Positions 36,989 to 62,294 of a DNA stretch of 64,000 nucleotides are shown here, in pieces. The notes under the pieces were generated by a model. That model was not told where the DNA came from. It worked only from the letters and a program-made list of their open reading frames with translations, and ran no database searches. Each line of letters begins with the position of its first letter. Position 1 is the first letter of the stretch. A program made the translations under genes and the position numbers. This DNA comes from an uncultured delta proteobacterium (GTDB taxonomy: Bacteria > Myxococcota_A > Polyangia > Polyangiales > Polyangiaceae): the NCBI GenBank assembly GCA_963782055.1, contig CAWAIF010000003.1, positions 6,112,001 to 6,176,000 of the forward strand, read 5' to 3'.

Positions 36989-38686
<1,698 letters not shown>

Positions 38687-38758
38687 GGTCCTCCAGGTGG
38701 CAAGACGGCAGGATCCATGGATATCGCAGCGTGCGCCCGCGTCAAGCGAGCCCGGGGC

Positions 38759-40789: not shown

Positions 40790-40854
40790 CGACCTTGCCT
40801 CATGACCGACAACCTTATCAGCTCGGCCGTGGCTTCTTTGGTAAGAAACGGGCG

Positions 40855-42027: not shown

Positions 42028-42028
42028 G

Positions 42029-42070
42029 CCTCACCCCCCGGCCCCCTCTCCCTGCGCGGGAGAGGGGGAG
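42029..42070. repeat. REP-like palindromic element between convergent genes
   Basis: CCTCACCCCCCGGCCCCCTCTCCC-TGCGC-GGGAGAGGGGG hairpin. Confidence 0.6.
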
Positions 42071-42083
42071 AAGAAGAGGGATT

Positions 42084-42833
42084 TCACAAGACGACCACGT
42101 TGTCGAAGTCGACCGCCCTGCCGAGGGCCAGCGTCACGTCGTCAACGATGCCGATGGCGAGCTCGGAGCCCGAGGTGACGCCGACGCCGATGGGGCCCAC
42201 CATGTTGTTGTCGTACTTGATGCCAATCAATCCCGGGCTGCAGAGGACGGTGATGGTGTGCCACATGGCGTCCGTCGCGCTGGCCAGGCCCACCACCCCT
42301 CCCTTGTCGTCCTTGACGTGGACGCCCTGGCCATCCACGGAGAACGTCAGCGTCCCGGTGGGGTCGGTGATGCGCATGAAGTCGGCGGCGACGCTGCCGG
42401 AGACGAAGCGCGCGTTCACGGTGATGGTCTTGGGGCTGGTCGTGATCTTCTCCGTCACCGCCGCGTGCTGACCCACCCCCGAGACCTTCGCCTCCATGGC
42501 GTTCGGATCAGAGAGCGGGTTGGTCTGCACCACCGCCAGGGTCCCCCCGTTGACGTCCTGCGCGTCCCACTTCATCGCGGGGTTGCTGCCCTCGTCCCAG
42601 TCGGCGCAGAAGATGGCCTGCGGGTGCGACGCGCAGTACCCCAGGTCGGGCGCGTCGGGCTGACCGCCGCCGTCGTCCGCGTCGACGGCGTCCGCGCCCG
42701 CGTCGTCCGGCGCGGCCTGGTCCGGCTCCTCCGCGGCGTCGGAGCCCCCGGCGTCGCCGCTGCTCCCGAAGGAGTCGGGCCCGCACGCGGCGGTGAGCAA
42801 GAGCACGAGCACGACGGACGAAGGAAGGCGCAT
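42084..42833 (-). CDS. Hypothetical lipoprotein (beta-rich)
   Basis: LTAAC lipobox, Asp/Ala/Gly linker, IFCADWD motif. Confidence 0.7.
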   Translation of the reverse strand: MRLPSSVVLVLLLTAACGPDSFGSSGDAGGSDAAEEPDQAAPDDAGADAVDADDGGGQPDAPDLGYCASHPQAIFCADWDEGSNPAMKWDAQDVNGGTLAVVQTNPLSDPNAMEAKVSGVGQHAAVTEKITTSPKTITVNARFVSGSVAADFMRITDPTGTLTFSVDGQGVHVKDDKGGVVGLASATDAMWHTITVLCSPGLIGIKYDNNMVGPIGVGVTSGSELAIGIVDDVTLALGRAVDFDNVVVL

Positions 42834-42868
42834 ACCGACGAGTATAGCGCCACGGGGGCGCGCGGGCC

Positions 42869-43102
42869 TCAGTGCATGGCGAGCCCGAGGAAGTAGGGCC
42901 ACACGATCAGCGCCAGGAGCGCCTTCCACCACACCAGCTTGAGCAAGCCGAGGGTGAACAGCCAGCCGCCGAACCAGAGCGTGCCCGCGAGGGGCGGCCC
43001 CGGCCGGAGGCGCGCGGACCGCTCCGCGCGTGCCCTGGTCTTGCGCTCGGTGGGCTCGACGTGGACGTCGATGTGAGGGAGAGCGGGAGTCTGGGTGGTC
43101 AT
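42869..43102 (-). CDS. Small membrane protein
   Basis: 77 aa ending GTLWFGGWLFTLGLLKLVWWKALLALIVWPYFLG. Confidence 0.65.
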   Translation of the reverse strand: MTTQTPALPHIDVHVEPTERKTRARAERSARLRPGPPLAGTLWFGGWLFTLGLLKLVWWKALLALIVWPYFLGLAMH

Positions 43103-43321
43103 GGTGCGCCGAGTTGCAACGGGTGGACCAGCGCGCAGCCGGCCAAGCGCCGGATGCGCGGGGCGGCGGGCGTGCTGCGGCAGAAGAGGTTGCGCGCGCG
43201 TGCAGGGCTTGCGATGCGCGCGCGGCGGCGGGAGGGAGGGCTGGCGATCATGCATGCGGTTGCGCCGTCTCGTCTCGTCGAAGCGAATCCCATGCCACGC
43301 GCCGTGGGCTACAGTCCTCGC

Positions 43322-44581
43322 GTGGGCTTCTTCTCCAAGCTCTTCGGCAGGCCGGCCCCTCCTCGCGCGCCGCAACCCACGGCGCCGGCAACGGCTGCAC
43401 ATGCGCCGCCACCGGCGGCGGAGCCTGACCGGAGGGAGGAGCCGGAGTCGGACCTGGACCGGCTGGGCAAGAGCGGGGCGCCGGGAGGCCCGGCGGTGGA
43501 GGAGGCGGTCGCCATCTTCCGCCGGCTGCGCACCACACCGGACGAGGGGCACGCGATCGAGCGGATCCAGCAGGCGACGCTGGAGCGGGTCGTGCCGGAG
43601 CCGCTGCTGGTGGCGGCGGCGGCGGCGCTCGTCGACCGCGGCGAGCCGGCGAACGCGCTCACCCTGCTCGACCACGCGGGCAGCGCGCCGGGCCTGCTGC
43701 TGCGCGCCGACCTGGAGGCGGAGCGCGGGGACGTGCCGCGCGCCCTGGCGCTGGTGGAGCGGGTGCTGCTGCGCGAGCTGGATCACCCCGGCGCGCGCGA
43801 GCGGCACCGCCGCTGGCGGGAGGAGCTCGGCCTGGTGGAGGGCCGGCGGCCCGACGCAGCGACGAGCACCGTCGTCTCGGCGGAGCCCGACGCCCCCTAC
43901 CAGCTCCTGCGCGAGGTCGCGCGCGGCGGCGCCGGCGCCGTCTACGAGGCGGACGATCGCGAGCTCGGCCGGCGCGTCGCGCTGAAGGTCTACCACGAGC
44001 CCACGCGCGACCGGGACCAGCTCGTCCACGAGGCGCGCGTCGCGGTGAGCCTCAGCGGGCCCGGGGTGGTGCGCGTCTTCGACCTGGACCCCGATCACGG
44101 CTGGATCGCCCTGGAGTGGGCGCCGCTGGGGGCGGTGCGCGAGCGCCTGCGCGCCGGCGATCTCGCGTCGCTGCTGCCGGTGGAGCGCTGGGCGCTGCCG
44201 CTGGCCCAGGCGCTCGCCCGCGTGCACGACGCCGGCTGGGTGCACCTGGACGTGAAGCCCGCCAACGTGCTGGTGCTCGCGCCGGACCGGCCGGCGCTCA
44301 CCGACTTCGGCATCGCCCGCCGCGCGGGGGCGCAGAGCCCGCGAGGGAGCATGGGCTACGTCAGCCCGGAGCGGATGAAGGGAAAGCGTGCAGACTACAA
44401 GGATGACGTCTACGGCTTCGGGCGCATCCTGGAGGACGTGCTGGACGCCGCGGACGACCCGGCGGCGTCGGCGCGGTGGCGGGCGCTGGCGCGGGCGTGC
44501 ACCGGTCCGGAGGAGGCGCGCCCGGCCCACGCGCGGGATCTGGTCCTGCGCGTCCGGGCCGCCGTCGCTTCGGCATCGTGA
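43322..44581 (+). CDS. Ser/Thr kinase with helical/TPR-like N-terminus
   Basis: ARGGAGAVY, VALK, HLDVKPAN, DFG, SPE; GTG start inferred. Confidence 0.85.
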   Translation: MGFFSKLFGRPAPPRAPQPTAPATAAHAPPPAAEPDRREEPESDLDRLGKSGAPGGPAVEEAVAIFRRLRTTPDEGHAIERIQQATLERVVPEPLLVAAAAALVDRGEPANALTLLDHAGSAPGLLLRADLEAERGDVPRALALVERVLLRELDHPGARERHRRWREELGLVEGRRPDAATSTVVSAEPDAPYQLLREVARGGAGAVYEADDRELGRRVALKVYHEPTRDRDQLVHEARVAVSLSGPGVVRVFDLDPDHGWIALEWAPLGAVRERLRAGDLASLLPVERWALPLAQALARVHDAGWVHLDVKPANVLVLAPDRPALTDFGIARRAGAQSPRGSMGYVSPERMKGKRADYKDDVYGFGRILEDVLDAADDPAASARWRALARACTGPEEARPAHARDLVLRVRAAVASAS

Positions 44582-44632
44582 ACGGCCGTCCCGCTTGACG
44601 AAGGCCGCTTGCGGTACCAGATTGTCCGGACC

Positions 44633-45829
44633 ATGCCTCCGAAGACCTACAGCGACCTGCTGGCCGACACCAAGAAGCGCATCCAGGAGGTCTCCCTCGA
44701 CGAGCTCAGGCGCCGGCTGGACGCCGGCGAGCCGGTGGTGCTCGTCGACGTGCGGGAGAAGGAGGAGTACCGCGCCGGCTTCATCCCGGGCGCCATCTCG
44801 GTGCCGCGCGGCTTTTTGGAGCAGCAGATTGAGCAGAAGGTCCCGGACAAGACGGCGCGCGTGGTCGCCTACTGCGCCGGCGGCGTGCGCAGCGCCTTCG
44901 CGGCGGAGACGCTCGCGCAGCTCGGCTACGTCAACGTGGAGAGCGCCAACCCCGGCTTCGTCCGGTGGAAGGACCTCGGCCACCCCATCGACCATCCCCC
45001 CCAGCTCACCGAGTCGCAGCGCGACCGCTACTCCCGCCACATCCTCTTGCCGGAGGTGGGGGAGGCCGGGCAGGTCAAGCTGCTCAAGTCGAAGGTGCTG
45101 CTCCTCGGCGCCGGCGGCCTGGGCTCGCCCGCGGCGCTCTACCTGGCGGCGGCGGGCGTCGGCACCCTCGGGATCGTCGACGCCGACGTGGTGGACGCCT
45201 CCAACCTGCAGCGGCAGATCCTCCACGCCACCAGCCGCGTCGGCATGCCCAAGGTGGAGAGCGCGGCGAAGGCCATCGCCGACCTCAACCCCGACGTGAA
45301 GGTGATCCAGCACAGGGAGCGGATGACCAGCGAGAACGTGGAGCGCCTCTTCGCCGGCTACGATCTGGTCGTCGACGGGACGGACAATTTCCCGACACGC
45401 TACCTGGTCAACGACGCGAGCGTGTTCCTCGGCAAGCCTGTCGTGCACGGGTCCATCTTCCGCTTCGACGGCCAGGTGACGACCTTCGTGCCGAAGAAGG
45501 CGGCGCTCAAGTTCGGGGTGCCGGAGAGCCCGTGCTACCGGTGCCTGTACCCCGAGCCGCCGCCGCCGCACCTGGCGCCGAGCTGCCAGGAGGCGGGGGT
45601 GCTCGGGATCCTCTGCGGCATCATCGGCACCCTGCAGGCGACGGAGGCCATCAAGCTGATCCTCGGCAAGGGCGACGTCCTCGGCGGGCGCCTGCTCACC
45701 TACGACAGCCTGAAGATGCGCTTCCGCGAGCTGCGCCTGCGCAAGGACGCGGCATGCCCGGTGTGCGGCCCGAAGCCGAGTATCACCAGGTACGTGGACT
45801 ACGAGGGGTTCTGCGCGCTGGGGGCGTGA
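44633..45829 (+). CDS. moeB: Rhodanese-ThiF fusion adenylyltransferase (MoeB/MoeZ-like)
   Basis: N-terminal rhodanese CAGGVRS; RYSRH, GAGGLG, SNLQRQ, DNFPTRY, CYRC, CPVC motifs. Confidence 0.93.
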   Translation: MPPKTYSDLLADTKKRIQEVSLDELRRRLDAGEPVVLVDVREKEEYRAGFIPGAISVPRGFLEQQIEQKVPDKTARVVAYCAGGVRSAFAAETLAQLGYVNVESANPGFVRWKDLGHPIDHPPQLTESQRDRYSRHILLPEVGEAGQVKLLKSKVLLLGAGGLGSPAALYLAAAGVGTLGIVDADVVDASNLQRQILHATSRVGMPKVESAAKAIADLNPDVKVIQHRERMTSENVERLFAGYDLVVDGTDNFPTRYLVNDASVFLGKPVVHGSIFRFDGQVTTFVPKKAALKFGVPESPCYRCLYPEPPPPHLAPSCQEAGVLGILCGIIGTLQATEAIKLILGKGDVLGGRLLTYDSLKMRFRELRLRKDAACPVCGPKPSITRYVDYEGFCALGA

Positions 45830-45840
45830 TCCCGTAGTCC

Positions 45841-46641
45841 CTACTTCTGGCAGGCGCCCGTCACGCACTGCATCCCGAAGAACACGCAGTTGGTGCAGCC
45901 CTGTCCGCCCGAGCCGCAGGCGAAGGGCTGCGTGCCGACCGCGCAGACGCCGTCGGTCGTGCAGCAGCCGGCGCAGGTCTCGGGACCGCACGGCGGCCCC
46001 GCGTCGGAGCACACGCCGCCTCCACCGTCGAGGAGCTCGCAGTGGCCGGAAGCTTGGGCCGGGTTGCACCGCAGGCACGGCTCGCCCCCATGCCCGCAAG
46101 CGTTGTCGTGGCGCCCGGAAGCGCAGTACTCATCGCTGTCGCCGAAGCAACAGCCGTCGCAGTTCGCCGAGTTGCACGGCCCGCCCGTGGGGTAATAGCA
46201 GGTTGCGCCCTTGCAGATGTCCTCCTTTGGGCACACCTCGCATGGCTCGCCGTAGCCTCCGCACACCCAACCGGCATCGACGTCTGCGGGCCCCTGATAG
46301 CAACCGCCATCAGGGACACAGCAAGACTTCGGGCACGTGGCGAAGCCGCACCCGGCCGGGGTGACGTCCGGCTCGGCATCGACGCCCCCCTCACCGTCGA
46401 CGCCGGCGTGTGCCTCCTGCGAGCCGTCCGCAGCCGTGCCATCGAGGATGGTTCCATCCTCCGAAGCGTCATTGATCTCGTGGAGATACAGGCCCGTTCG
46501 GCTTCCGCACCCCTGCCAGCAGAGCGCCATGAAGCACGCCCCCGCGATCGCGAGGAAGCCCCATCGGCGCGGCGTCCCCATCAGCCCCATCAGAGGAGCG
46601 CCGCGCCAACCGGTCTGCATAGGCCAACGCGGAGCGTTCAA
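45841..46641 (-). CDS. Cassette 1 gene A: Cys-rich lipoprotein
   Basis: QGC-GSRTGL lipobox; CDGCC/CAGCC repeats; in-frame TTG overlaps the B1 stop (later ATGs possible). Confidence 0.8.
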   Translation of the reverse strand: MNAPRWPMQTGWRGAPLMGLMGTPRRWGFLAIAGACFMALCWQGCGSRTGLYLHEINDASEDGTILDGTAADGSQEAHAGVDGEGGVDAEPDVTPAGCGFATCPKSCCVPDGGCYQGPADVDAGWVCGGYGEPCEVCPKEDICKGATCYYPTGGPCNSANCDGCCFGDSDEYCASGRHDNACGHGGEPCLRCNPAQASGHCELLDGGGGVCSDAGPPCGPETCAGCCTTDGVCAVGTQPFACGSGGQGCTNCVFFGMQCVTGACQK

Positions 46642-47279
46642 TTCGTAAGGGTGACGCTGTCGCACGGGGAGCCACCGCAGAGATTCGTATTCGCGCAGAG
46701 ATCTCCGCCACTGAAGGACACCTTCGTCCCCCAGGCGCTATTCTCGAAGTAGCCATCCTCCCCGCCCGGCAGCGAGCCAGGGTAGTACGAGTACACGTTG
46801 TTGGACCAGTAGACCCAGAAGCAGGTGGGGGACCCGAGACAGAACTGATCACTATCAAGATTCTCTGTACCCTGCCCGGCGAGACAAAGCCGCGCGAAGC
46901 TGCCCGAAGTAGGGCAGTTACTCACATCGTAGACCCAGAGGTCGCTGTACGCACAATTGGGGTCCCCCGAGATCGCCGCCGACTGCTGGGCCACTGCTTC
47001 CCCACCGCCGGTCACGCTCGTGCCTGGATCGGGCTGAGGCGCAGGTTGGTGGTTGAGGAACGCCTTCTTCGCGGCCAGCTCCCTCGCGTATTGTTCGGGT
47101 GACGCGACGTAGTGGTACGTGTGCAGCTTCCCGTCGGGCCCGACGCGGATCACCGTCGTGTCCACGCCGTCGGTGGGCGGCGTCGCCCCACCCGAGGAAC
47201 ACCCGGCTCCGACGAGAACACCCACCGCGACCATCGCGAGCACACCGATCCAGCGTCCAGAAATCTTGTTCTTGACCAT
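46638..47279 (-). CDS. Cassette 1 gene B: lipoprotein with Cys-containing beta-rich C-terminal domain
   Basis: MVKNKISGRW..VGAGC lipobox; GAGG RBS; QQSAAI junction then DLWVYD..RLCLAGQG..W.NNVYSY. Confidence 0.8.
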   Translation of the reverse strand: MVKNKISGRWIGVLAMVAVGVLVGAGCSSGGATPPTDGVDTTVIRVGPDGKLHTYHYVASPEQYARELAAKKAFLNHQPAPQPDPGTSVTGGGEAVAQQSAAISGDPNCAYSDLWVYDVSNCPTSGSFARLCLAGQGTENLDSDQFCLGSPTCFWVYWSNNVYSYYPGSLPGGEDGYFENSAWGTKVSFSGGDLCANTNLCGGSPCDSVTLTN

Positions 47280-47298
47280 CTTGCACCTCACAGGATTG

Positions 47299-48798
47299 GT
47301 CTCTGCTTAGCGGCCGGAAGACGGCCCGCGGCCCGGGCGTGACGTCGACCGTCGGAGGACTCGCCGGCTAGTGGGCAAAGACAGACGGAGGCGGCTTGCC
47401 GTGGAGGTGACTTTCGTACAGCCCGATGACGAAGCCCCGAAGCGGGAGCCGGCACTTGCGCCGCGTCTGCGTGATGCTCATCCAGTGCGCCAGGGTGGCG
47501 CTGCCGGCGGCCGAGCGCGTTCCGCCGGTCATCGCGCGGTGCCGCCCGTGGGCGCGGATGTCGCGTTCGGTCGCGTTGTTCGTGGCCGGGACGTCGGGGC
47601 GGTCGATGAAGAGCGTCACCCCCACCTTGTGCTCGTCGAGGCGCTCCTGCAGCCGGACGATGTCCGGGAACTCCACGAAGTTGGTGCTGCTGATGAGATG
47701 GCCGAGGCGGATGCGCGCGCCTCGGCGCTGCTCGGGATCGCCGCTCGCCGCGGCGTGCTTGCCCGCGACGTAGAAGCCGATGAGTCGGTCGCGGCGCACG
47801 GGGTGAGCTCGGCGATCTTCTTGGCCTCGCGGATGGTGTGCGCACCGCAGTAGGCGTGGGTCCAGCCGTCGTGACTCGTGTACACGCCGTAGAAGTCGGT
47901 GCACAGGACTCCTTTGAAGCTCGCGCCGAGCATCGACTCGGCGACCCACGCGCCGCGCGACAGCTCGGCGCGGAAGACCGAGACGCGGTCGGTGCGCATC
48001 AGCCACATCCAACCCGGCACGCCGTCCTGTCGATGGCCGCTCTCGTCGAGGCCCGCCACGGGCGATGCGCGCACCGCGTCGACCAGCTCGTCGTAGCTCG
48101 GCGCCGAGCGGCGTCGCAATCGGTCGAACATCTGCGCCAGGCCGCCGGTCGTGATCGAGATGCCGAGCCACTGTCCGAGGAACGCACTGATCTTGCCCAG
48201 CGGCATGTCGCGCTCGAAGCGCAGGTCCAGCGCCATCGCCTGCACGTTGGGGCCGAACGACACCGCGGCGACGCTCTTGCCCGCCGCCGGCGCGCCCGGC
48301 AGCTTCGCGACCACGCGCTTGTGGCACACCTCGCAGCTGCCGACGTGCGCCACGTGATGCGTCTGCCGCGGCTGCACCACTGGGATGTCGGTGACGACTG
48401 TGCTGTCCGTCTCGCCCGTCGCCACGACTGCCCCGCCACAGCTGCACGTCGCCGGCATCTCGTGCACGACTTCGTCGTCGACGTGGGCCGGTGCGGCGGG
48501 CCGCGATCCGACATGGCCCACCTTGCGGCCGCGCGGCTTGCCCGAGGGCGCCCGCCGACCCTCGGAGCGCGACGTCCGCCGCTTCCCGCGCTCCCGGAAC
48601 CCGCGCTTCCACTCCTCGATCTCCTTGCGCAGCTTCGCCAGCTCTTCGCGAAGCGCGGCGTTCTCCTGCTCCAGCTCCTGGATCCGCTGCTCGGGCGTCA
48701 CGTGATCCGGGATGCTCCCGATCAGGCCCCATGGAAAGAACTTCTCGCATCAGGAACGAAGAATGGACCCACAGTGTGCGACACCGCTAAGCAGACAC
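47299..48798 (-). mobile_element. IS66-family element (single ORF), copy 1, frameshifted
   Basis: IRs GTCTCTGCTTAGCGG / CCGCTAAGCAGACAC; 8-bp duplication CAGGATTG; DESG, TDFY, CGAH, TNNATER motifs; 16-bp deletion near 47787 relative to copy 2. Confidence 0.9.
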
Positions 48799-49007
48799 CA
48801 GGATTGTGCCCCCCCCCCGCGTCGCCGCGGGATGAGTGCACCGCGATGACAGCACCGCCGGCTGAGCCGTGCAAGGGGAAAAGGACGCAGGCGAGACCAC
48901 TACCAGCTAGCGGGTAGATCGTTTGCCCCGCTCGCCTGGCCCATGCGGTCGAGGCCGGTCCACCTCGCTGATGGCCCCCTGCGTCAGAGCTGCCAGGAGG
49001 GGGGTCG

Positions 49008-49111
49008 GCGAGCTGCGCCTGCGCAAGGACGCGGCGTGCCCGGTGTGCGGCCCGAGGCCGAGCATCACCAAGTACGTGGACTACGAGGGCTTCTGCGCGC
49101 TGGGGGCGTGA
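49008..49111 (+). repeat. moeB 3'-end copy 2
   Basis: Encodes ELRLRKDAACPVCGPRPSITKYVDYEGFCALGA*, near-identical to 45726-45829. Confidence 0.95.
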
Positions 49112-49122
49112 CCGCGTAGTCC

Positions 49123-49902
49123 CTACTTCCGGCAGGCGCCCGTCACGCACTGCATCCCGAAGAACACGCAGTTGGTGCAGCCCTGTCCGCCCGAGCCGCA
49201 GGCGAAGGGCTGGGTGCCCACCGCGCAGACGCCGTCGGTCGTGCAGCAGCCGGCGCAGGTCTGGGGGCTGCACGGGGGGCCCGCGTCGGAGCACACGCCA
49301 CCGCCGCCGTCGAGCAGCTCGCAGTGGGCGGAGCCCAGCTTCGGCTTGCACAGCGAGCACGGCAGACCGCCGTGCCCACACGCGTTGTCGTGTCGTCCGG
49401 AGGAGCAGTAGTCGTTTCCGTAGCAGCACCCGTCGCAGTTGGAGGGGTTACACGGACCATCCGTATTGATCAAACAGGATTGGCTCTTGCAGAAATAGCC
49501 CTTTGGGCACGTCTCACACGGCTCGCCGAAGCCCCCACACACCTGATGGTCCGGATCTTGGGGCCCCTGGAAGCAACCGCCGTCCGGGAGACAGCAAGTC
49601 GAACAAGTATCGAAGCCGCAACCGGTGGGGATGACGTCCGGCTCGGCGTCGACGCCTCCCTCCGCATCGAGGGCGGCGTCGGTCTCCTGCGATGCGTCCC
49701 GCGCCGCGCCATCGAGGATGGTTCCATCGTCCGATGCATCGCTGACGTCGTTGAGATACAGGCCCGTTCGACTTCCGCAGCCCCACCACGAGACGGACAC
49801 GACGCACGCCCCGGCGATCATGAGGAATGCCCATCGGCGCGGCGCCTCCGTCGGGGGAGCGCCGCGCCGACCATTCCGCGGAAGCCGCCGGGCAGCGCTC
49901 AA
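49123..49902 (-). CDS. Cassette 2 gene A: Cys-rich lipoprotein
   Basis: WGC-GSRTGL; C-terminus near-identical to A1; start uncertain. Confidence 0.8.
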   Translation of the reverse strand: MSAARRLPRNGRRGAPPTEAPRRWAFLMIAGACVVSVSWWGCGSRTGLYLNDVSDASDDGTILDGAARDASQETDAALDAEGGVDAEPDVIPTGCGFDTCSTCCLPDGGCFQGPQDPDHQVCGGFGEPCETCPKGYFCKSQSCLINTDGPCNPSNCDGCCYGNDYCSSGRHDNACGHGGLPCSLCKPKLGSAHCELLDGGGGVCSDAGPPCSPQTCAGCCTTDGVCAVGTQPFACGSGGQGCTNCVFFGMQCVTGACRK

Positions 49903-50189
49903 TTCGTGAGGGTGAGGGTGTCGCACGGGGACCCACCGCACAGGTTCGTGTTCGTGCAGTTATCTCCACCACTGAAGTACACCTTCGTCCCCCACGCCGT
50001 ATTCTCGAAGTATCCGTCCTCCCCGCCAGGGATACTACCCGGCCAGTACGAGTACACGTTGTTGGACCAGTACACGGTGAAGCAGGTTCCACCGCTGCAG
50101 AGCAAGAACGTGTCGTTGTCGAGGTTCTCCGTACCCTGACCCGCAAAGCAGACCCGCATCCAGCGTCCAGAAATCTTGTTCTTGACCAT
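49899..50189 (-). pseudogene. Cassette 2 gene B with in-frame internal deletion
   Basis: MVKNKISGRW joined directly to MRVCFAGQG; about 350 bp shorter than B1, lacks the signal peptide. Confidence 0.8.
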
Positions 50190-50405
50190 CTTGCACCTCA
50201 GAGGATTGTGCCCCCCCGCGTCGCCGCGGGATCAGTGCACCGCGATGACAGCACCGCCGGCTGAGCCGTGCAAGGGGGAAATGACGCAGGCGAGACCACT
50301 ACCAGCTAGCGGGTAGATCGTTTGCCCCGCTCGCCCGGCCTACGCGGTCGAGGCCGACCCACCTCGCTGACGTCCCCCTGCGTCAGAGCTGGCGGGAGGT
50401 GGGTG

Positions 50406-50513
50406 TTCCGCGAGCTGCGCCTGCGCAAGGACACGGCATGCCCGGTGTGCGGCCAGAAGCCGAGCATCACCAGGTACGTGGACTACGAGGGGTTCTGCAC
50501 GCCGGGGGCGTGA
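50406..50513 (+). repeat. moeB 3'-end copy 3
   Basis: Encodes FRELRLRKDTACPVCGQKPSITRYVDYEGFCTPGA*. Confidence 0.95.
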
Positions 50514-50526
50514 TCGCTCTGACTTA

Positions 50527-51225
50527 CTACTTGCTGCACACCTGTTCGACGCAATGCGTCCCGTGAAAGACGCAATCGTCGCAGGCGACACCGCCCTTGC
50601 CGCAGGCGAACGGCTGCGTCCCGATGGCGCAGGTGCCGTCTGCCGTGCAGCACCCGGGGCAGTTGTCCGGGGAGCATGGGGGCGCGGCGTCGAGGCACTC
50701 GCCTCCGCCCGCTTCCAGAGGCGTGCACGGGTCGCACGCGTCGCAGTGCCCCCCCCCGTGACCACACGCCCGCGCGTGGATGCCGCTCGCGCACCAGTCG
50801 GTTCCTTGGAAGCAGCAGCCCTCGCAGTTGGACGCGTTGCACGGGCCGTCCGTGAAGTGGAAGCACGTGCCCTGCTTGCAGTACCCGGCCTCGGGACACG
50901 TCTCACAGGCCTCTCCGTGGTCGCCGCACTGCGACTGGTTTGGTTGGGGCTCGATGCACGTCCCGTCCGGCGTGCAGCACCCCTTCTCGCAGGTCGCCAG
51001 GCCGCACCCGCCCTCCGCGCCGCCGTCGACATCCATGTTGGAGTCGGCGTCGGCTTCGGCTTCGGGTGCGTCGCCGAACCCATCTTCCGCAACTGTACCG
51101 TCCACGGCGCCATCCTGAACGAGGCCCCCCCCGAGCCCCGTTCGACTACCGCATCCACCGATGCCGAGGTCGACGGGCAGCGCGGACGCCAGCGCAACGA
51201 TGAGCAGACGATGCCAGCGCACCAC
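50527..51225 (-). CDS. Cassette 3 gene A: Cys-rich lipoprotein (second subtype)
   Basis: GGC-GSRTGL; similar Cys scaffold; C-terminus DNCPGCC..CVFHGTHC. Confidence 0.8.
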   Translation of the reverse strand: MVRWHRLLIVALASALPVDLGIGGCGSRTGLGGGLVQDGAVDGTVAEDGFGDAPEAEADADSNMDVDGGAEGGCGLATCEKGCCTPDGTCIEPQPNQSQCGDHGEACETCPEAGYCKQGTCFHFTDGPCNASNCEGCCFQGTDWCASGIHARACGHGGGHCDACDPCTPLEAGGGECLDAAPPCSPDNCPGCCTADGTCAIGTQPFACGKGGVACDDCVFHGTHCVEQVCSK

Positions 51226-51244
51226 GATCGCCTTGTCGGACCGA

Positions 51245-51871
51245 TCAGTCGGTCAGCACCAGCGTGTCGCAGTCACCACCAGGGTTGCAGAGGTTGGTGT
51301 TGGTGCATCCCTGATTGGCACTGAAGCTCACCTGGGTTCCCCAAGCATTGTTCTCGAAATACCCAACCTCCGATCCGGGGGAGAACGAGTACACGTTGGC
51401 GTCCCAGTACACATAGAAGCAGCTTCCACCGCAGATGTAGAAGCCCTGGTTGTCGAGATTCGCCGTTCCCGAGCCGTTGAAGCAGATGCGGGCGGAGCCA
51501 CTGCCGGGGCATCCGCTCTGATCGTAGACCCAGAGATCACCGCCCGCGCAGGTCACCACCGAGATCGCCGCCGACTGCTGGGAGACGTCTTCCCCGCTCC
51601 CCGTGACGCTCGTGCCCGGATCGGGTTGCGGCGCAGTCTCGTGGTTGAGGAACGCCTTCTTGGCTGCCAGCTCCCTCGCGTACTGCTCGGGGGACGCGAC
51701 GTAGTGGTACGTGTGCAGCTTCCCGTCGGGCCCGACGCGGATCACCGTCGTGTCCACGCCGTCGGTGGGCGGCGTCGCCCCACCCGAGGAACACCCGCCT
51801 CCGACGAGGACGCCCACCGCCACCATCGCGAGCACACCAATCCAGCGCCCAGAAATCTTGTTCTTGACCAT
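51245..51871 (-). CDS. Cassette 3 gene B lipoprotein
   Basis: N-terminal half near-identical to B1; C-terminal domain divergent. Confidence 0.82.
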   Translation of the reverse strand: MVKNKISGRWIGVLAMVAVGVLVGGGCSSGGATPPTDGVDTTVIRVGPDGKLHTYHYVASPEQYARELAAKKAFLNHETAPQPDPGTSVTGSGEDVSQQSAAISVVTCAGGDLWVYDQSGCPGSGSARICFNGSGTANLDNQGFYICGGSCFYVYWDANVYSFSPGSEVGYFENNAWGTQVSFSANQGCTNTNLCNPGGDCDTLVLTD

Positions 51872-52119
51872 CTTGCACCTCACAGGATTGTGCCCCCCGC
51901 CCCCCCGCGTCGCCGCGGGGGGGGTGCAGTCCCGATGACAGCACCGCCGGCTGAGCCGTGCAAGGGGAAAGGACGGGAAAGGACGCCGACGGGACCACTA
52001 CCAGCTAGTGGGTGGATCGTTTGCCCCGCTCGCCTGGCCTACGCGGTCGAGGCCGGTCCACCTCGCTGACGTCCCCCCGCGTCAGAGCCGCGAGGAGGCG
52101 GGGATCCCCGAGCCACGCG

Positions 52120-52215
52120 TGCGCAAGGACGCGGCGTGCCCGGTGTGCGACCCGAACGAAGCCGAGCATCACCAGGTACGTGGACTACGAGGGGTTCTGC
52201 GCGCTGGGGGCGTGA
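52120..52215 (+). repeat. moeB 3'-end copy 4 (degenerate)
   Basis: GCGCAAGGACGCGGCGTGCCCGGTGTGCG..GGGGCGTGA with a small insertion (CCCGAACGAAGCCG). Confidence 0.92.
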
Positions 52216-52226
52216 TCCCGTAGTCC

Positions 52227-52985
52227 CTACTTCTGGCAGGCGCCCGTCACGCACTGCATCCCGAAGAACACGCAGTTGGTGCAGTCCTGCCCGCCCGAGC
52301 CGCAGGCGAAGGGCTGCGTGCCCACCGCGCAGACGCCGTCGGTCGTGCAGCAGCCGGCGCACGTTTCCGGGTCGCAAGGCGGGCCCGCGTCGGAGCACAC
52401 GCCACCGCCGCCGTCGAGCAGCTCGCAGTGACCGGAACCTTCGGCCGGGTTGCAGCGCAGGCACGGCTCGCCCCCATGCCCGCAGGAGTTATCGTGTCGG
52501 CCTGTGGAGCAGTAGTCGTTGCCGTAGCAGCAGCCGTCGCAATTCGAGGGGCTGCACGGCCCGTCGGTAGCGCGCAAGCAGCTGCCCTTGCAGAAGAACC
52601 CTGCGTCCACATCACACTTCTCACACGGCTCGCCGTAGCCGCCACATGCCTGGTTCCAGTCCTTCTGCGGCAGGACACACTGACCATCGGACGCACAGCA
52701 ACCGTCTGGACAGGTCTGGAAGCCGCAACCTGTCGGGATGACGTCCGGCGCCGCGTCGACGCCGCCCTCCGCATCAAGGTTGGCGTCTGCTTCCTCTGAG
52801 CCGTCGGCGGCACCATCGGGGACCGTGCCATCGGCCGAGGCGTCGCCGATCTCGTTCAGATACAAACCAGTACGGCTTCCACACGCTTCTACACCGAGGA
52901 CCCAGATAGCGACACAGGTACACACGGACAGGAGCGTCAGAGCGGTAGGGGACCTCGGCAGCATGCGTTTCGGCACCACGCCCAC
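52227..52985 (-). CDS. Cassette 4 gene A: Cys-rich lipoprotein
   Basis: VEAC-GSRTGL; C-terminus near-identical to A1/A2; different signal peptide. Confidence 0.8.
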   Translation of the reverse strand: MGVVPKRMLPRSPTALTLLSVCTCVAIWVLGVEACGSRTGLYLNEIGDASADGTVPDGAADGSEEADANLDAEGGVDAAPDVIPTGCGFQTCPDGCCASDGQCVLPQKDWNQACGGYGEPCEKCDVDAGFFCKGSCLRATDGPCSPSNCDGCCYGNDYCSTGRHDNSCGHGGEPCLRCNPAEGSGHCELLDGGGGVCSDAGPPCDPETCAGCCTTDGVCAVGTQPFACGSGGQDCTNCVFFGMQCVTGACQK

Positions 52986-52990
52986 CTCAA

Positions 52991-53625
52991 CTAGTTGGTG
53001 AGCGTCAAGTAGTCGCAGTCTCCGCCCGGGTTACAGAGGTTCGTGTTGGCACAGCTGGTGTTGCTGCCTCCACTGAATGACACCTGGGTGCCCCACGCAC
53101 CATTCTCGAAATATCCGTCCTCGGTCCCCGGCCAGTACGAGTACACGTTGTGGGACCAGTACACGCTGAAGCAGGTGCCACCGCTGCAGAGCAAGAACGT
53201 GTCGTTGTCGAGGACCTCCGTACCTTGCCCGTAGAAACACACTCGCGCGAAGGTGCCCGAAAGAGGGCAGCTGCTCACGTCGTAGACCCAGATGTCGTTC
53301 GGGTCGCAGCCACTATCCTTGGTGATGGCGGAGGCCTGTTGCCCCACGGCTTCCCCCCCAGCCGTACCTTGCGGCAAATCGGCGGCCCGCGCACGCGGGT
53401 CGAGCACGTGCTTCTTCGCCGCCACCTCCCGCGCGTACTGCTCGGGGGAGGCGACGTAGTGGTACGTGTGCAGCTTCCCGTCGGGCCCGACGCGGATCAC
53501 CGTCGTGTCCACGCCGTCGGTGGGCGGCGTCGCCCCACCCGAGGAACACCCGCCTCCGACGAGACGCCCACCGCCACCATCGCGAGCACACCGATCCAGC
53601 GCCCAGAAATCTTGTTCTTGACCAT
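52991..53625 (-). pseudogene. Cassette 4 gene B, 1-bp deletion in the signal region
   Basis: 635 nt ATG-to-stop; GACGAGACG at ~53558 versus GACGAGGACG in B3. Could be a sequencing error. Confidence 0.75.
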
Positions 53626-53791
53626 CTTGCACCTCACAGGATTGTGCCCCCCCCCGCGCGTCGCCACGGGATGGGTGCACCCCGATGACAGCACCGCCGG
53701 CTGAGCCGCGCAAGGAGAAAGTGCTCACTACACCCTAGTGGGTAGACCATCTGTCCCACCCGCTCGGTCGACCCTGACCAGCTAGTTTGCT

Positions 53792-53952
53792 AGGGCGACG
53801 TGCTGGGCGGGCGCCTGGTCACCTACGACAGCCTGAAGATGCGCTTCCGCGAGCTGCGCCTGCGCAAGGACGCGGCGTGCCCGGTGTGCGGGCCGAAGCC
53901 GAGCATCACCAAGTACGTGGACTACGAGGGGTTCTGCGCGCTGGGGGCGTGA
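53792..53952 (+). repeat. moeB 3'-end copy 5 (longest, 161 bp)
   Basis: Aligns without gaps to 45669-45829 with 7 substitutions. Confidence 0.96.
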
Positions 53953-53979
53953 TCGGGGCGTGATCGCCGCGACTCCCTG

Positions 53980-54610
53980 CTATTTGGTGCACACCTGGTT
54001 GATGCACTGGGTGCCGTGGAAGACACAGTCGTCGCAGACGATACCTCCTTTTCCGCACGCGAACGGCTGGGTTCCGACGGCGCATGTACCATCTGTCGTG
54101 CAGCATCCGGGGCAGTTGTCCGGAGAGCACGGCGGGGCGGCATCGGCGCACTCGCCGCCGCCCGCCTCGAGAGGCGTGCACGGGTCGCACGCGTCGCTGC
54201 CGGATGCGGCAGTCGGACGGGCCTCGGATCGGGGTACCTCCGGGACGGCGGCATGGATGGCACCGTGGCGGACGATGGAATCGGCGACGCACCCGCCGAC
54301 GCCGCCGGCGAGTCAGATTCGGAGATCGACGGTGGCGCGGACGGCGCGTGTGGCCCGCAGACATGCGCCGACGGGACATGCGTCGATTCGCACCACTACA
54401 GCAACGCGGCATGCGGCGACCACGGAGAGGCATGCGAGACATGTCCCGACTCCGACGCCGGCTACTACAGCGCGCAGGGTACGTGTCTCCACTTCACGGA
54501 CGGGCCGTGCAACCCATCCAACTGCGACGGCTGCTGCTTCCAGCAGACAGACTGGTGCGCGAGCGGCATCCACGCGCGGGCGTGTGGTCACGGAGGGGGC
54601 CACTGCGACG
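53980..54610. pseudogene. Cassette 5 gene A, broken by an internal inversion
   Basis: C-terminal half on the minus strand (53980-54197, DACDPC..NQVCTK*); N-terminal half GCGSRTGL..GGGHCD on the plus strand (~54198-54610), abutting IS66. Confidence 0.85.
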
Positions 54611-56128
54611 GTCTCTGCTTAGCGGCCGGAAGACGGCCCGCGGCCCGGGCGTGACGTCGACCGTCGGAGGACTCGCCGGCTAGTGGGCAAAGGCAGACGG
54701 AGGCGGCTTGCCGTGGAGGTGACTTTCGTACAGCCCGATGACGAAGCCCCGAAGCGGGAGCCGGCACTTGCGCCGCGTCTGCGTGATGCTCATCCAGTGC
54801 GCCAGGGTGGCGCTGCCGGCGGCCGAGCGCGTTCCGCCGGTCATCGCGCGGTGCCGCCCGTGGGCGCGCGGATGTCGCGTTCGGTCGCGTTGTTCGTGGC
54901 CGGGACGTCGGGGCGGTCGATGAAGAGCGTCACCCCCACCTTGTGCTCGTCGAGGCGCTCCTGCAGCCGGACGATGTCCGGGAACTCCACGAAGTTGGTG
55001 CTGCTGATGAGATGGCCGAGGCGGATGCGCGCGCCTCGGCGCTGCTCGGGATCGCCGCTCGCCGCGGCCTGCTTGCCCGCGACGTAGAAGCCGATGAGTC
55101 GGTCGCGGAACTCCTCGGTCGCGGCGCACGGGGTGAGCTCGGCGATCTTCTTGGCCTCGCGGATGGTGTGCGCACCGCAGTAGGCGTGGGTCCAGCCGTC
55201 GTGACTCGTGTACACGCCGTAGAAGTCGGTGCACAGGACTCCTTTGAAGCCCGCGCCGAGCACCGACTCGGCGACCCACGCGCCGCGCGACAGCTCGGCG
55301 CGGAAGACCGAGACGCGGTCGGTGCGCATCAGCCACATCCAACCCGGCACGCCGTCCTGTCGATGGCCGCTCTCGTCGAGGCCCGCCACGGGCGATGCGC
55401 GCACCGCGTCGACCAGCTCGTCGTAGCTCGGCGCCGAGCGGCGCCGCAATCGGTCGAACATCTGCGCCAGGCCGCCGGTCGTGATCGAGATGCCGAGCCA
55501 CTGTCCGAGGAACGCACTGATCTTGCCCAGCGGCATGTCGCGCTCGAAGCGCAGGTCCAGCGCCATCGCCTGCACGTTGGGGCCGAACGACACCGCGGCG
55601 ACGCTCTTGCCCGCGGCCGGCGCGCCCGGCAGCTTCGCGACCACGCGCTTGTGGCACACCTCGCAGCTGCCGACGTGCGCCACGTGATGCGTCTGCCGCG
55701 GCTGCACCACTGGGATGTCGACGACGACCGTGCTGTCCGTCTCGCCCGTCGCCACGACTGCCCCGCCGCAGCTGCACGTTGCAGGCATCTCGTGGAAGAC
55801 TTCGCCGTCGACCTGGGCCGGTGCGGCGGGCCGCGATCCGACATGGCCCACCTTGCGGCCGCGCGGCTTGCCCGAGGGCGCCCACCGACCCTCGGAGCGC
55901 GACGTCCGCCGCTTCCCGCGCTCCCGGAACCCGCGCTTCCACTCCTCGATCTCCTTGCGCAGCTTCGCCAGCTCTTCGCGAAGCGCGGCGTTCTCCTGCT
56001 CCAGCTCCTGGATCCGCTGCTCGGGCGTCACGTGATCCGGGATGCTCCCGATCAGGTCCCATGGAAAGAACTTCTCGCATCAGGAACGAAGAATGGACCC
56101 ACAGTGTGCGACACCGCTAAGCAGACAC
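54611..56128 (-). mobile_element. IS66-family element, copy 2
   Basis: Same IRs as copy 1; transposase from 56031; extra GC near 54866 shifts the C-terminus; flanks CTGCGACG / CCGCCAAC do not match. Confidence 0.9.
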
Positions 56129-56321
56129 CCGCCAACTTCCCCATAGGGCTCCGAGGCCACCGCCTCGCCGCTGCCGCGCACCGGCTTCGTCCAACCGTCG
56201 ATTTCGCGACCGCGCACCCGCGCCACGCGACCGCCGCCGCGACCCGGCGCGCTCACGCAATCGACTCTTACTTATGCGAAGTGGGGCCGTCCGGTGTCAC
56301 TGGAAGGACGGACCAGGGTGG

Positions 56322-56548
56322 CCCCGAAGCTCGTCGATGACCGCCGGCGTGAAGGTCCGCTGCAGCGCTGCAGCTGCTCCTCCACCGCGCTCGCCTCTTC
56401 GCTCGGCTCTGGCCGGCTGCTCGTGGCTCGGGTAGCTCTCGTCGTCATCGGGCGTCCTCTCCTTGTTGGTGTCGCAACCGAACAACGAGAATGGCGCCCG
56501 AGTTATTTCCATCATTCCGCCACGTTATGTCCAAAGGATCTGGCCATG
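56322..56548 (-). mobile_element. Truncated left end of the IS4 element found at 62295
   Basis: Near-exact reverse complement of ~62295-62513, including the terminal CATGGCCAGATCC. Confidence 0.88.
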
Positions 56549-56686
56549 GGGCGAGGGGAGCTGGCGCGGCGGCAAGTTCCCCGACGTGCGCGGCCGAAAG
56601 AGAAGGTCACCGCAAAGGACCGCAAGGTGGCCGAGCTGGAGCGACAGGTCCGGCACGGAAGCGGTCACCTAGCAACGCGGCGGCGA

Positions 56687-57172
56687 TCAAGGCATGCACA
56701 CGCCCTGAGCGCACTGCCAGCCCCCCTTGCAAGAATGACCGCACGCGCCGCAGCTCGTCGGGTCGTTCAGGAAGTTGGTGCACCCCCCCTGGCAGGCGTC
56801 GGGGCAGCCCGCGTCGTCGAGGGTGCAGAGATTGCAGAGGGTGTTCGCCTCACAGGGCTTGATGCAGTGGGGGTGTGGCGTGCGATCGGATGCTCCACAG
56901 TAGAAGCCGCCATTCCCGCCGTTGGGTGCGGAGGTGCAGATCGTGTCGCCCTGGCAGAGTTCCACCTGGGAGTAGTAGTTCAGCCCGGCATCGGGATGGA
57001 TCACGCCGTGTTGCTTGTCGCAGTAGATGCCTGGGCGCAGTGAGCCATCCGGGGCCGCGTCCAAGCCTACATCATCGCCGAAGACGAGCCCCCCGCACGA
57101 CGCCACGATGAGACCGACGATGGCGACCACGGCCAGGGCAATGACACGTGTGCACGTCACTGGGGCTTCCAC
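56687..57172 (-). CDS. Small Cys-rich lipoprotein
   Basis: IVASC lipobox; C-terminal NDPTSCGACGHSC..CAQGVC; overlaps the upstream gene end. Confidence 0.75.
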   Translation of the reverse strand: MEAPVTCTRVIALAVVAIVGLIVASCGGLVFGDDVGLDAAPDGSLRPGIYCDKQHGVIHPDAGLNYYSQVELCQGDTICTSAPNGGNGGFYCGASDRTPHPHCIKPCEANTLCNLCTLDDAGCPDACQGGCTNFLNDPTSCGACGHSCKGGWQCAQGVCMP

Positions 57173-59358
57173 AGCGTGGCGTAGATGCTACTGTTGGATT
57201 GCTCGTCGCGGGTGTCGCCCCATGCCGGGAAGCAACCCACGCTGGGCGCGCACGTCATCCCCTCGTAGTCGCCCCACGGCGTGTTGCCCGTGCCGCTTCC
57301 CTCCGTGGGATCGATCGTACTCCAGGGGATGAGATCCCCATCCGCAATCTGCGCTGCCAGCTCCTCGATGCCGTTCCAGCTACCGTTCACGATGGCGCGG
57401 CCGAAGATGCTCTGCAGCGCCGGCGGGCCGGGGCTGCGGCGCGTGTCGTGCCACGCCACCGTCACCGTGGGCTGGGTAGGCTGCCACATCCAGGCGGCCG
57501 ACGCCGCGAACTGGTTGCTGACGCACTCCGTCCCGTTCGAAAAGCACGGCTGCGGCTGCCCCCAGAGCGTGATGGTCGGTGCCACCTCGAAGACCGGCGC
57601 GAAGCCGGTGCTGATGCTGACGTCCGACGTCGTGTAGAAGACGCGCTGGCCTCGCGACGTCTGCTGATGGGTATCGGGGTCCGTCTGGAACAACGTCCGG
57701 TTCCAGAAGACGTGCCACGACGAGGTCTCGGCGTCGTAGACCACCGCGGGCCGCGCGCGGTTGTTCCCGTGGTGGCCGTTCGCGTCGGGATCGACGCAGC
57801 TCGGCCAGGCGGAGTCGGTGTCCAGGATCACCGAGCCATCGTCACCGCCGACGGACTTGCGCCAGTGCTCCCCCCAGTCCGACGAGACCGCCGCGCGTAG
57901 CTCCAGGTCGAAGGTGGGGTTGGTGGGGCAGTCGTCCAATTGATCGGATTCCAGATCCGTGCTGTCGGCGTTGGCACGCGGGAAGGTGACGAGCAGCCGC
58001 TCGCTGCTGCCGTTGCCGCAGTCGTCGATCTGCGCAGCCATGGGATCGGTGCACGCCGCGGCGATGTTGGCGTCGGAGAAGGCGACGCAGGACAGGTTGC
58101 AGTCGATGCGGATCTCCCGCGGAGGGGGGCTGCCGGAGCTGTCGATGGTCCCGTCGCTCTCAAAGTGCAGACGCCGGATCCAGTTGCGCGACAGCCCCTG
58201 GGACAGCGAGCTGTTCCGGTTGCGCCAGTTCACCCACACCACGTGCGGCTGGTTCGGGCCGGCCGGCTGCACCCCGTCCCACTCCAGGGACGCCGTGGGC
58301 TGGTCGGCGAAGCCCGGCTGCGCACCCGCCGCGCCATCGGAGTTGCTATCCGAGACCATGGCGAAGCACTGCGGCCCGCACAGGCCACCACCAGGAAGGT
58401 TGCCGTTGGGCCCGAAGGTCTGGCCCCCATCCCTGGAGAGGAACATCACGATGTCGCTCGTGGTTGCGCTGTTCTGCGATGCCGTGCTCACGGCGGGCTC
58501 GAAGTACGCCAGCTGGTTGGGCCAGCCGGTGGGCACGAGCGCAGGGTCCCCGGCGGTCCCCACGTACTGCGTGCCGTCGGTCAGGGTGGGAGGTGTGCCG
58601 GTGAAGAAGGGGTTGCTCGTCTCGTCGCGCGTGGTGAAGGCTACGCCGTCGGTCGAGAACGTCCATGCGGCGTACTTGTTGTTGTGCGACGCCGTGTTGA
58701 AGGCGATGACGGTGGACGCGGGGCTGGAGAGGCTGACGTCGTCGAAGAGGGTGTCATCCCCGTCGCCCGGCCAGTTGTCGTCGTGGTTGACCAGCTTGAG
58801 GACGTACTCGTGGCCGGAGACGAGCGGCGCGTCGACCTGGGTCCAGCTGTTCGTCGTGCAGGTGCGCGGCAGGATCGTGGTGACGGTGCCGCCGGCGGTG
58901 TTGTCCTTCAGCGTGGCGGTGGCGAAGTCGCAGTTCGTACCGCACACGTCGTTGCAGAACATCTTCCACCAGAAGTGCAGGTCCACCGGGGAGACCGCGG
59001 GCGCGGTGAACGTCTGGCTGATCGTGCTGTCCCCGTTCGTCGGCTGCGTCGACCCGAGCATCGCGGCGAAGCTGCCGGAGTGATGGTCGGAAGAAACGAC
59101 GGTCTCGGACGCGCCGGAGGCGACCCATCCCATGAGGTCGCCGGTCTCGAAGCCGTCGTTGAAGCCCCCCGTCGGAAGCACGGCCACGCTGGTCTCGTTC
59201 CCCCTCTGATCGGCCGCGTCGATGTTCCCGAACGTCAGGGGCTGGCTGGCCGTCGCCACCGGACCGTCGTCGACCGATGCGCATCCCACCATGGACCCAG
59301 AGCCCACCACCAACGCCGTGAGCGCACCGAGGGCCATCGCTTGCAGGTCCATCTTCAT
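57157..59358 (-). CDS. Large lipoprotein with CBM-like domain and Asp-box (BNR/sialidase-like) region
   Basis: MVGC lipobox, SQPL motif, GFETGDLMGW, Asp boxes SRDGGQTF and SSDWGEHW; GGAGG RBS. Confidence 0.75.
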   Translation of the reverse strand: MKMDLQAMALGALTALVVGSGSMVGCASVDDGPVATASQPLTFGNIDAADQRGNETSVAVLPTGGFNDGFETGDLMGWVASGASETVVSSDHHSGSFAAMLGSTQPTNGDSTISQTFTAPAVSPVDLHFWWKMFCNDVCGTNCDFATATLKDNTAGGTVTTILPRTCTTNSWTQVDAPLVSGHEYVLKLVNHDDNWPGDGDDTLFDDVSLSSPASTVIAFNTASHNNKYAAWTFSTDGVAFTTRDETSNPFFTGTPPTLTDGTQYVGTAGDPALVPTGWPNQLAYFEPAVSTASQNSATTSDIVMFLSRDGGQTFGPNGNLPGGGLCGPQCFAMVSDSNSDGAAGAQPGFADQPTASLEWDGVQPAGPNQPHVVWVNWRNRNSSLSQGLSRNWIRRLHFESDGTIDSSGSPPPREIRIDCNLSCVAFSDANIAAACTDPMAAQIDDCGNGSSERLLVTFPRANADSTDLESDQLDDCPTNPTFDLELRAAVSSDWGEHWRKSVGGDDGSVILDTDSAWPSCVDPDANGHHGNNRARPAVVYDAETSSWHVFWNRTLFQTDPDTHQQTSRGQRVFYTTSDVSISTGFAPVFEVAPTITLWGQPQPCFSNGTECVSNQFAASAAWMWQPTQPTVTVAWHDTRRSPGPPALQSIFGRAIVNGSWNGIEELAAQIADGDLIPWSTIDPTEGSGTGNTPWGDYEGMTCAPSVGCFPAWGDTRDEQSNSSIYATLWKPQ

Positions 59359-59584
59359 CGCCCCACCTCCGACATGAATGACCGCGCGTGTGCGCAGATG
59401 GCTGAAACGAGATACGAGGCTACGGAGGGGTGGTGTGTAGCGCAACGGACAAAGCAGGACTCTCGCCTCAATTCACGCGCATGTCACGGACTACTACTAC
59501 CTGGGGTAGTAGAGACCCCGTGCCCCGCCTGATGGCTCATATCGACTATGAGCCCGGGAGCTGGAAGCCGTCTGGGACGAGGGC

Positions 59585-62233: not shown

Positions 62234-62294
62234 CCTTCGCGGCGAGGTCTGGCGATGCGCCACTACCGGACGCTCCTCCTCGGAGCGTTCACCG

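Follow-up and report, generated by a model that had tools for sequence, protein, structure and literature searches.

Integrative elements accrete in tandem at the 3' ends of housekeeping genes, as exemplified by the staphylococcal cassette chromosome (SCC) at rlmH and by cis-mobilizable elements (CIMEs). Arrays of another kind are built from tandem paralogues: the lpl genes of Staphylococcus aureus are tandem lipoprotein paralogues in an island (Tsuru and Kobayashi 2008, PMC2568036), where recombination takes place at conserved blocks and the travelling unit reaches from the 3' part of one gene across the spacer into the 5' part of the gene that follows. The esaG and tipC immunity arrays (Garrett et al. 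2022, PMC9484751) likewise hold tandem paralogues that are not identical; these arrays grow and shrink, and highly similar blocks mediate their recombination. The locus analysed here lies in a 64,000-nucleotide stretch (the window; positions 6,112,001 to 6,176,000 of contig CAWAIF010000003.1, assembly GCA_963782055.1) from an uncultured delta proteobacterium of the Polyangiaceae, where the 3' end of the moeB gene recurs as a short 'tail' between copies of a two-gene lipoprotein operon, its genes called B and A, that is headed by a leader.

Here we report that this is a real, single-lineage array in decay, in which the protein pair is new, the moeB scar is instructive and the general kind, a shuffled tandem array of lipoprotein genes, is known. 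In our preferred reading, to which we give a probability of about 0.6, the array goes back to an old tandem duplication, jointed within moeB, whose copies have since been reshuffled by RecA-type recombination at two blocks that they share. The array resembles lpl in its tandem lipoprotein paralogues with conserved recombination blocks, but here a two-gene operon is repeated together with its leader, and of the two shared blocks one comes from the 3' end of the neighbouring housekeeping gene; its proteins bear no relation to those of lpl, and shuffling between strains is demonstrated for lpl, whereas the present case is a single genome. It differs from esaG and tipC, which are immunity genes with a known cognate toxin, in that neither a toxin gene nor a secretion system is linked to it. 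The original prediction recognised no described system; this holds for the B-A pair, which is undescribed, whereas the architecture has known analogues in lpl and esaG. No description of the locus or of the pair was found in the literature, a search that reached few subscription journals and left supplements aside.

The array consists of five moeB 3' ends and four leader-B-A units, plus a broken fifth A; as in lpl and esaG, its paralogues stand head-to-tail and are non-identical. The moeB 3' ends fall at 45829, 49111, 50513, 52215 and 53952, exactly as originally predicted, with raw stop-to-stop spacings of 3282, 1402, 1702 and 1737 bp; the first becomes 1774 bp, the predicted figure, because the insertion sequence (IS) IS66 at 47299-48798 accounts for 1500 bp and its target duplication for 8 bp. 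Every interval holds a leader, B and A on the minus strand, convergent to moeB, and the fifth A is broken; both features had been read correctly. This fifth A is split, its N-terminal half inverted and abutting a second IS66. The genome comprises 7.58 Mb in three contigs, with the array in the 7.0-Mb contig (C3 denotes coordinates on contig 3), and holds no close copy of A or B elsewhere, nor any moeB tail outside the array.

The tails are of two junction types. Tail 5 (type 1) is 166 nucleotides (nt) long, and tails 2-4 (type 2) reach further into moeB, matching the stretch at 45528-45600 with 63-65% identity and then, beyond a deletion of about 120 nt, a final 107-111 columns with 90-94% identity. 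The 5' matches of the three type-2 tails were outdone by just 1, 36 and 5 of 2000 random genome segments, the three tails not being independent of one another. The type-2 scar is an old, decayed 5' half joined to a young 3' half.

Along the units, highly similar blocks (the leader with the start of B; the tail with the end of A) alternate with divergent ones, and the copies are mosaic. Between copies, the B N-terminus has synonymous divergence (dS) of 0.06-0.17 and nonsynonymous divergence (dN) of 0, while the crystallin domain of B, described below, reaches dS 0.85-1.76 and dN 0.17-0.38 and the middle of A dS 0.76-1.88 and dN 0.20-0.47. By comparison, moeB of this genome differs from that of six congeners by dS 0.52-0.95, a yardstick that is rough because codon bias differs (GC content at third codon positions about 0.8 against 0.97). 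The dN/dS of the two divergent regions is 0.2-0.3, and region-wide dN/dS lies below 1 in all mature regions, so that this measure gives no sign of positive selection. To judge from these rates, the A middle and the B crystallin domain have diverged to the level of orthologues between species or beyond, under purifying selection.

The 3' ends of A split A3 and A5 from A1, A2 and A4 (classes beta and alpha) at 37 of 43 informative sites, with a between-class identity of about 65%. The tails do not follow these classes, which supports the proposed recombination through the moeB tail: they are 90-96% identical to moeB whichever A class adjoins, identity jumps at the moeB stop codon, and moeB and tail 5 are 96.4% identical, whereas A1 and A5 are 65.8% identical. 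The groupings among tails contradict the A classes and the junction types alike. In the A tree the array copies form one clade (96/90) apart from 20 outside homologues, and unit 3 is the outlier in the A tree and the B tree alike, which indicates that the crystallin domain of B moves as one with the middle of A.

The same conflicts bear on a plainer history, an old tandem duplication without shuffling, in which the last ~110 nt of the tail were conserved in each unit for a function, whether as a terminator or 3' end for the A transcript or as an element upstream of the next leader. The A stop codon lies 11-28 nt from the moeB stop in all units, so that the A transcript must run into the tail, and the class order alpha-alpha-beta-alpha-beta fits block duplication. 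However, no terminator-like site was found in the tails, the splits among them fit neither A classes nor junction types, and the synonymous sites of the B N-terminus are also uniform, which selection alone explains poorly; we regard this account as improbable.

In the shuffled-duplication reading, a leader-B-A operon would have settled beside moeB in convergent orientation (in relatives the pair is single and elsewhere) and would then have been duplicated in tandem; because the new joint lay inside moeB, each repeat would have come to hold a scrap of the moeB 3' end, as the observed anatomy has it. Unequal crossover and gene conversion of the RecA type would act through the leader with the B start and through the tail with the A end, keeping these blocks uniform and shuffling the segment made of the B crystallin domain and the A middle into the mosaic observed; recA has two matches in the genome. 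The array would be old, since its gene cores stand at between-species divergence and the 5' parts of its tails have decayed, and it is eroding through IS66 insertions, a deletion and a frameshift.

Several points weigh against this history. The tail holds just two informative sites, the monophyly of the B copies is weak (73/45), and the two junction types call for two origins or later remodelling. A fifth leader counted with the array lies 40 kb off and presumably belongs to it, and with one genome of this species compared, copy-number change and shuffling between strains are predicted rather than observed. Finally, tail 5 differs from moeB mainly at synonymous sites (5 of 7 changes, p = 0.013; 3 of the 4 that are unique among tails, p = 0.05, some of the seven having arisen in moeB itself), as though it were the former end of a functional moeB, a pattern in keeping with displacement by an incoming allele.

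Such displacement is central to the main alternative, in which the slot beside moeB is polymorphic in the species, every strain with a B-A allele of its own, and the alleles of other strains are collected by homologous recombination, with no integrase; the live moeB 3' end and the leader would be the homology arms, and older cassettes and moeB ends would be pushed outward. It is favoured by cores of between-species divergence lying inside within-species flanks and by the in-frame tail 5, whose synonymous bias stands at about p = 0.05 after possible moeB changes are set aside. Against it, no outside donor allele was found, the array A copies grouping apart from the outside homologues; the decayed 5' parts of the type-2 tails speak for long residence; and the last leader has no tail. 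We hold this capture of alleles to be possible but unlikely, and equally doubtful is its extension to a recombinase-free gene-capture locus, at which a population would swap and stack divergent B-A alleles, with the moeB 3' end and the leader as homology arms, into a strain-specific repertoire for recognition or antagonism.

The original prediction looked to relatives for variation in the cassettes downstream of moeB; no array was found there, among six congeners and 382 family genomes, and where B-A occurs elsewhere it is a single pair at other sites. Each of the six congeners has one moeB, followed by a WXXGXW-repeat gene and a chemotaxis receptor gene, and no moeB tail, A or B lies within about 3-5 kb downstream of it; in the present genome synteny breaks at the moeB 3' end. 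Relative to the congeners, the pilB-moeB block (27321-45829) is inverted with respect to the dnaJ block, and their WXXGXW-repeat gene has no close copy in this genome.

Across the family (tallies that include the unpublished G267, G307 and G308, none of them among the B or A matches), the B profile matches 31 of the 382 genomes and the A profile 8; since these searches took at most the best 7-8 candidates per genome and many genomes are incomplete, a missing match means 'not found' rather than 'absent'. Best B loci were examined in 29 other genomes, and A directly follows B in 2 of them (G003 and G190); both have a lone pair that lies away from moeB and lacks local repeats. G002 has A without a B match. 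The moeB C-terminus matches 312 of the 382, 309 of them once and three twice (G075, G182 and G205, the last with its two matches in long frames on different contigs); none of the 382 has at least three moeB ends, and no second moeB-tail array was found. An alignment search with A returned 13 loci in genome_contigs, 1 in metagenome_contigs and 0 in viral_contigs, none of them a B-A array.

These counts also concern the 'repeated integration' of the original prediction, taken as serial site-specific integration of small non-autonomous elements at an attachment (att) site in the moeB 3' end, with an integrase acting in trans. As in tandem accretion, a housekeeping 3' end is repeated between blocks of accessory genes; the breakpoint at moeB is also the edge of an IS-rich island, and the genome has 23 matches to PF00589, two of them within the island. 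The window was said to hold no integrase, and no PF00589 tyrosine recombinase match lies inside it (serine recombinases were not searched). The two island recombinase genes are members of a near-identical, ten-copy set scattered over the chromosome, and this PF00589 search found no dedicated recombinase or integrase. Unlike accreted elements, the units carry one paralogous pair as their sole cargo, their tails vary in length at the 5' boundary (166 nt against at least 300 nt), and no tail closes the array. This last point depends on a probable fifth leader at C3:6207109-6207206, outside the window and 40 kb past A5 in the same orientation, which is preceded by a 10-nt IS66 end, aligns with leader 4 nearly to that leader's joint and has no moeB tail after it; beyond it come an EAL gene and thrS, a native block whose pairing is kept in G001 and G003. 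If this distant leader is the end of the array, five tails and five leaders would be the count expected of tandem duplication, whereas n cassettes integrated at an att site predict n+1 tails. With the last leader lacking a tail, no cassette after moeB in the six congeners and no family genome with a comparable number of moeB ends, att-type integration goes unsupported and is in our estimate very unlikely.

It is harder still to credit that the array is a mis-assembly in which strain variants were strung together via a short repeat. Among the contigs listed from four public runs, none bridges a tail junction, as such an artefact would have it. Yet the array lies in a megabase-scale contig, each tail and joint has changes of its own, and stretches specific to each of units 1-5 recur in public soil runs with zero or one difference. 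Those runs, which may stem from the same site as the assembly and whose evidence is the contigs listed, also hold the B4 frameshift, the B3-A3 and B4-A4 boundaries and the A5-IS66 joint. In run X5, one contig joins 52425 and 52961 inside A4 with one letter between them, and may represent another organism or a deletion variant.

Unit 3 alone is whole, since B1 is cut off from its promoter-like site, B2 has suffered a deletion and B4 a frameshift; the frames of A1-A4 are all open (Table 1). A 28-nt motif is invariant across all five leaders, which also share a CACTA-N5-TAG(T/C)G palindrome (together spanning 48847-48912, 50246-50311, 51936-52010, 53686-53740 and C3:6207109-6207162), and the palindrome has just one further occurrence in the genome. 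In unit 1 the IS66 lies between the ribosome-binding site of B1 and this motif. Motif and palindrome are the probable, predicted promoter and regulator site, the motif being called promoter-like from its position and a 7/12 consensus match judged by eye; a sigma-70 scan returned no promoter. The palindrome is not linked to B-A in congeners, and an Rfam scan gave one sub-threshold match inside IS66 and otherwise nothing. Parts of units 2-4 are represented among the RNA-library contigs of two runs but unit 1 is not, a pattern compatible with its silencing by IS66, although contigs cannot show expression and missing cover is no proof. The second IS66 marks a rearrangement, since its flanks are no target duplication.

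Table 1. Features of the moeB-B-A array (window coordinates)
Feature	Position	Strand	Remarks
moeB (rhodanese + ThiF, MoeZ/MoeB type)	44633..45829	+	NF006444 PRK08762 584 bits, cut-off 449; Pfam ThiF + Rhodanese; 3' end recurs as tails
A1, Cys-rich lipoprotein, class alpha	45841..46590	-	open frame with uncertain start codon
B1, lipoprotein with beta/gamma-crystallin-fold domain	46638..47279	-	open frame; IS66 severs promoter-like site
IS66 copy in 5' untranslated part of leader 1	47299..48798	-	PF03050; 8-bp target duplication; transposase damaged relative to other copies
Leader 1	48807..48937	-	28-nt promoter-like motif 48847-48874; CACTA-N5-TAGCG palindrome
Tail 2, type 2	48938..49111	+	5' moeB part decayed, internal deletion, final 107 nt 94% identical to moeB
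A2, class alpha	49123..49941	-	open frame, start uncertain, overlaps B2 end
B2, 96 amino acids	49899..50189	-	in-frame deletion: signal peptide, N-terminal domain and start of crystallin domain gone
Leader 2	50190..50331	-	promoter-like motif 50246-50273
Tail 3, type 2	50332..50513	+	final 108 nt 94% identical to moeB
A3, class beta, intact	50527..51225	-	
B3, intact, 208 amino acids	51245..51871	-	copy used for structure model
Leader 3	51872..52030	-	promoter-like motif 51936-51963
Tail 4, type 2	52031..52215	+	4-nt insertion; identity to moeB 90% over final 111 columns
A4, class alpha, open frame	52227..52985	-	
B4	52991..53625	-	frameshift within signal-peptide region; identical letters in Illumina contig (53345-53647, zero differences)
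Leader 4, junction type 1	53626..53788	-	promoter-like motif 53686-53713
Tail 5, type 1	53789..53952	+	166 nt, about 95% identical to moeB, in frame; 5 synonymous + 2 conservative changes
A5 C-terminal piece, class beta	53978..54201	-	
A5 N-terminal/middle piece, inverted	54202..54610	+	abuts IS66 left end; signal peptide and B5 missing; public-run contig spans A5-IS66 junction
Second IS66	54611..56128	-	flanks not target duplication; left edge of 40-kb IS-rich stretch

The 40 kb between A5 and the fifth leader are dense in insertion sequences. From 54611-64000 on to C3:6207100 they hold several transposase types, recombinase-transposase gene pairs and further genes for secreted or Cys-rich lipoproteins, with a probable group II intron reverse transcriptase, judged by eye, at C3:6186984. 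Just past the second IS66 lies a 197-nt IS-end-like element (56125-56322), whose last ~50 nt are common to a repeat of ~100 nt resembling a miniature inverted-repeat transposable element; there are 32 matches on C3, clustered strongly at 4.41-4.47 Mb and 5.19-5.27 Mb. There follow a piece of about 230 nt (56320-56549) with some 12 genome copies, which matches the start of the IS4-type transposase at 62395, and, at 56687-59445, another pair of a large and a Cys-rich gene, encoding a 762-residue secreted protein (weak NTTRR-F1 match) and then a small Cys-rich lipoprotein (weak Stig1/MXAN_6577-like match).

The B protein has a lipobox, a hairpin-helix N-terminal domain, a linker and a C-terminal domain, with several conserved cysteines. 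A full search of cluster representatives yielded 62 relatives, of which 51 sequences were aligned, and 0 of the 51 has a meaningful Pfam family match, Crystall and Inhibitor_I36 included; the Atlas lists Inhibitor_I36/Crystall clusters at 0.75-0.80 for B, a lead only. In the B3 model (predicted local distance difference test score, pLDDT, 81), residues ~107-208 form a Greek-key beta-sandwich, whose structural matches are Nitrollin (3ENT, Z 8.5), Myxococcus Protein S (1NPS, Z 7.2) and AFP1 and SKLP (1GH5 and 1F53, Z 5.8), with members of the crystallin superfamily occupying the top 24 rows of the comparison; Foldseek returned the same group, with no E below 0.001. B is, on this model, a lipoprotein with a beta/gamma-crystallin-fold domain, sharing the sandwich with that superfamily (Z 5.8-8.5) but adding a lipobox, the N-terminal domain and the cysteines. 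An 'AI' motif conserved in the alignment consensus just before the crystallin domain suggests that a pro-region may be cleaved there. Two other B homologues have neighbourhoods of their own kind: at L054:436-2175 (G134) a different Cys-rich lipoprotein comes next, so that the partner slot may be filled by other families, and at L099:9652-11319 (G401) B is duplicated in tandem without A, adjoining tandem Cys-rich lipoprotein genes and short inverted repeats.

The A protein combines a lipobox with an acidic linker and Cys-rich repeats, and its alignment (25 sequences) contains 37 invariant columns, chiefly Cys or Gly; with no match in Pfam, NCBIfam, PHROGs or PDB, it is by its sequence a Cys-rich lipoprotein of no known family. 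An AlphaFold model of A, built from a 5-row alignment, was discarded at pLDDT 39.

Proteins of the beta/gamma-crystallin fold include spore-coat and antifungal proteins, and TraA, a component of another myxobacterial surface pair, has Cys-rich repeats and a C-terminal sorting tag, while its partner TraB is an OmpA-type protein. A is Cys-rich like TraA but has a lipobox instead of the sorting tag, and B is not OmpA-type. In Streptomyces umbrella toxins (PMC11062931), the adaptor UmbB is a small beta-sandwich after an N-terminal extension and a helix; the B sandwich also follows an extension and a helix and matches UmbB weakly (Z 5.2, Foldseek E 0.05), but its neighbour A is Cys-rich, with no trypsin-like or lectin (UmbA) match. 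ALF-repeat (PF03752, the UmbC scaffold) had no match in the genome, in a search whose controls gave no signal either. The sitBAI loci of myxobacteria, which are lipoprotein toxin loci (PMC5562445), share with the array polymorphic lipoproteins, several copies and a myxobacterial host, but its units hold just B and A, an immunity gene of their own is lacking, and no toxin domain was recognised, A having no match in the databases named above.

A toxin-immunity system of the sitAI kind does not fit, because there is no third gene, both proteins have lipoboxes and B usually occurs without A. For these reasons, and with dN/dS well below 1, the ligand/receptor, effector/immunity and kin-recognition roles floated in the original prediction find no support. 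With low confidence, and by analogy, we favour a repertoire of cell-surface binding or antimicrobial lipoproteins over a toxin-immunity pair, because known members of the fold are spore-coat, adaptor and antifungal proteins. B would display a variable beta/gamma-crystallin binding domain, or release it after cleavage of the pro-region, and A would perhaps be a disulfide-rich surface stalk or partner.

The array is seen in a single genome and in decay, which limits its weight. Within that frame the locus shows a duplication scar turning into a lasting recombination handle, one part of which decays as the part on the stop-codon side stays matched to the live moeB. Our findings also define a new family of myxobacterial lipoproteins, marked by a crystallin-type binding domain, and a new gene pair, B-A; both may be relevant to how uncultured Polyangiaceae recognise surfaces or prey on other cells.

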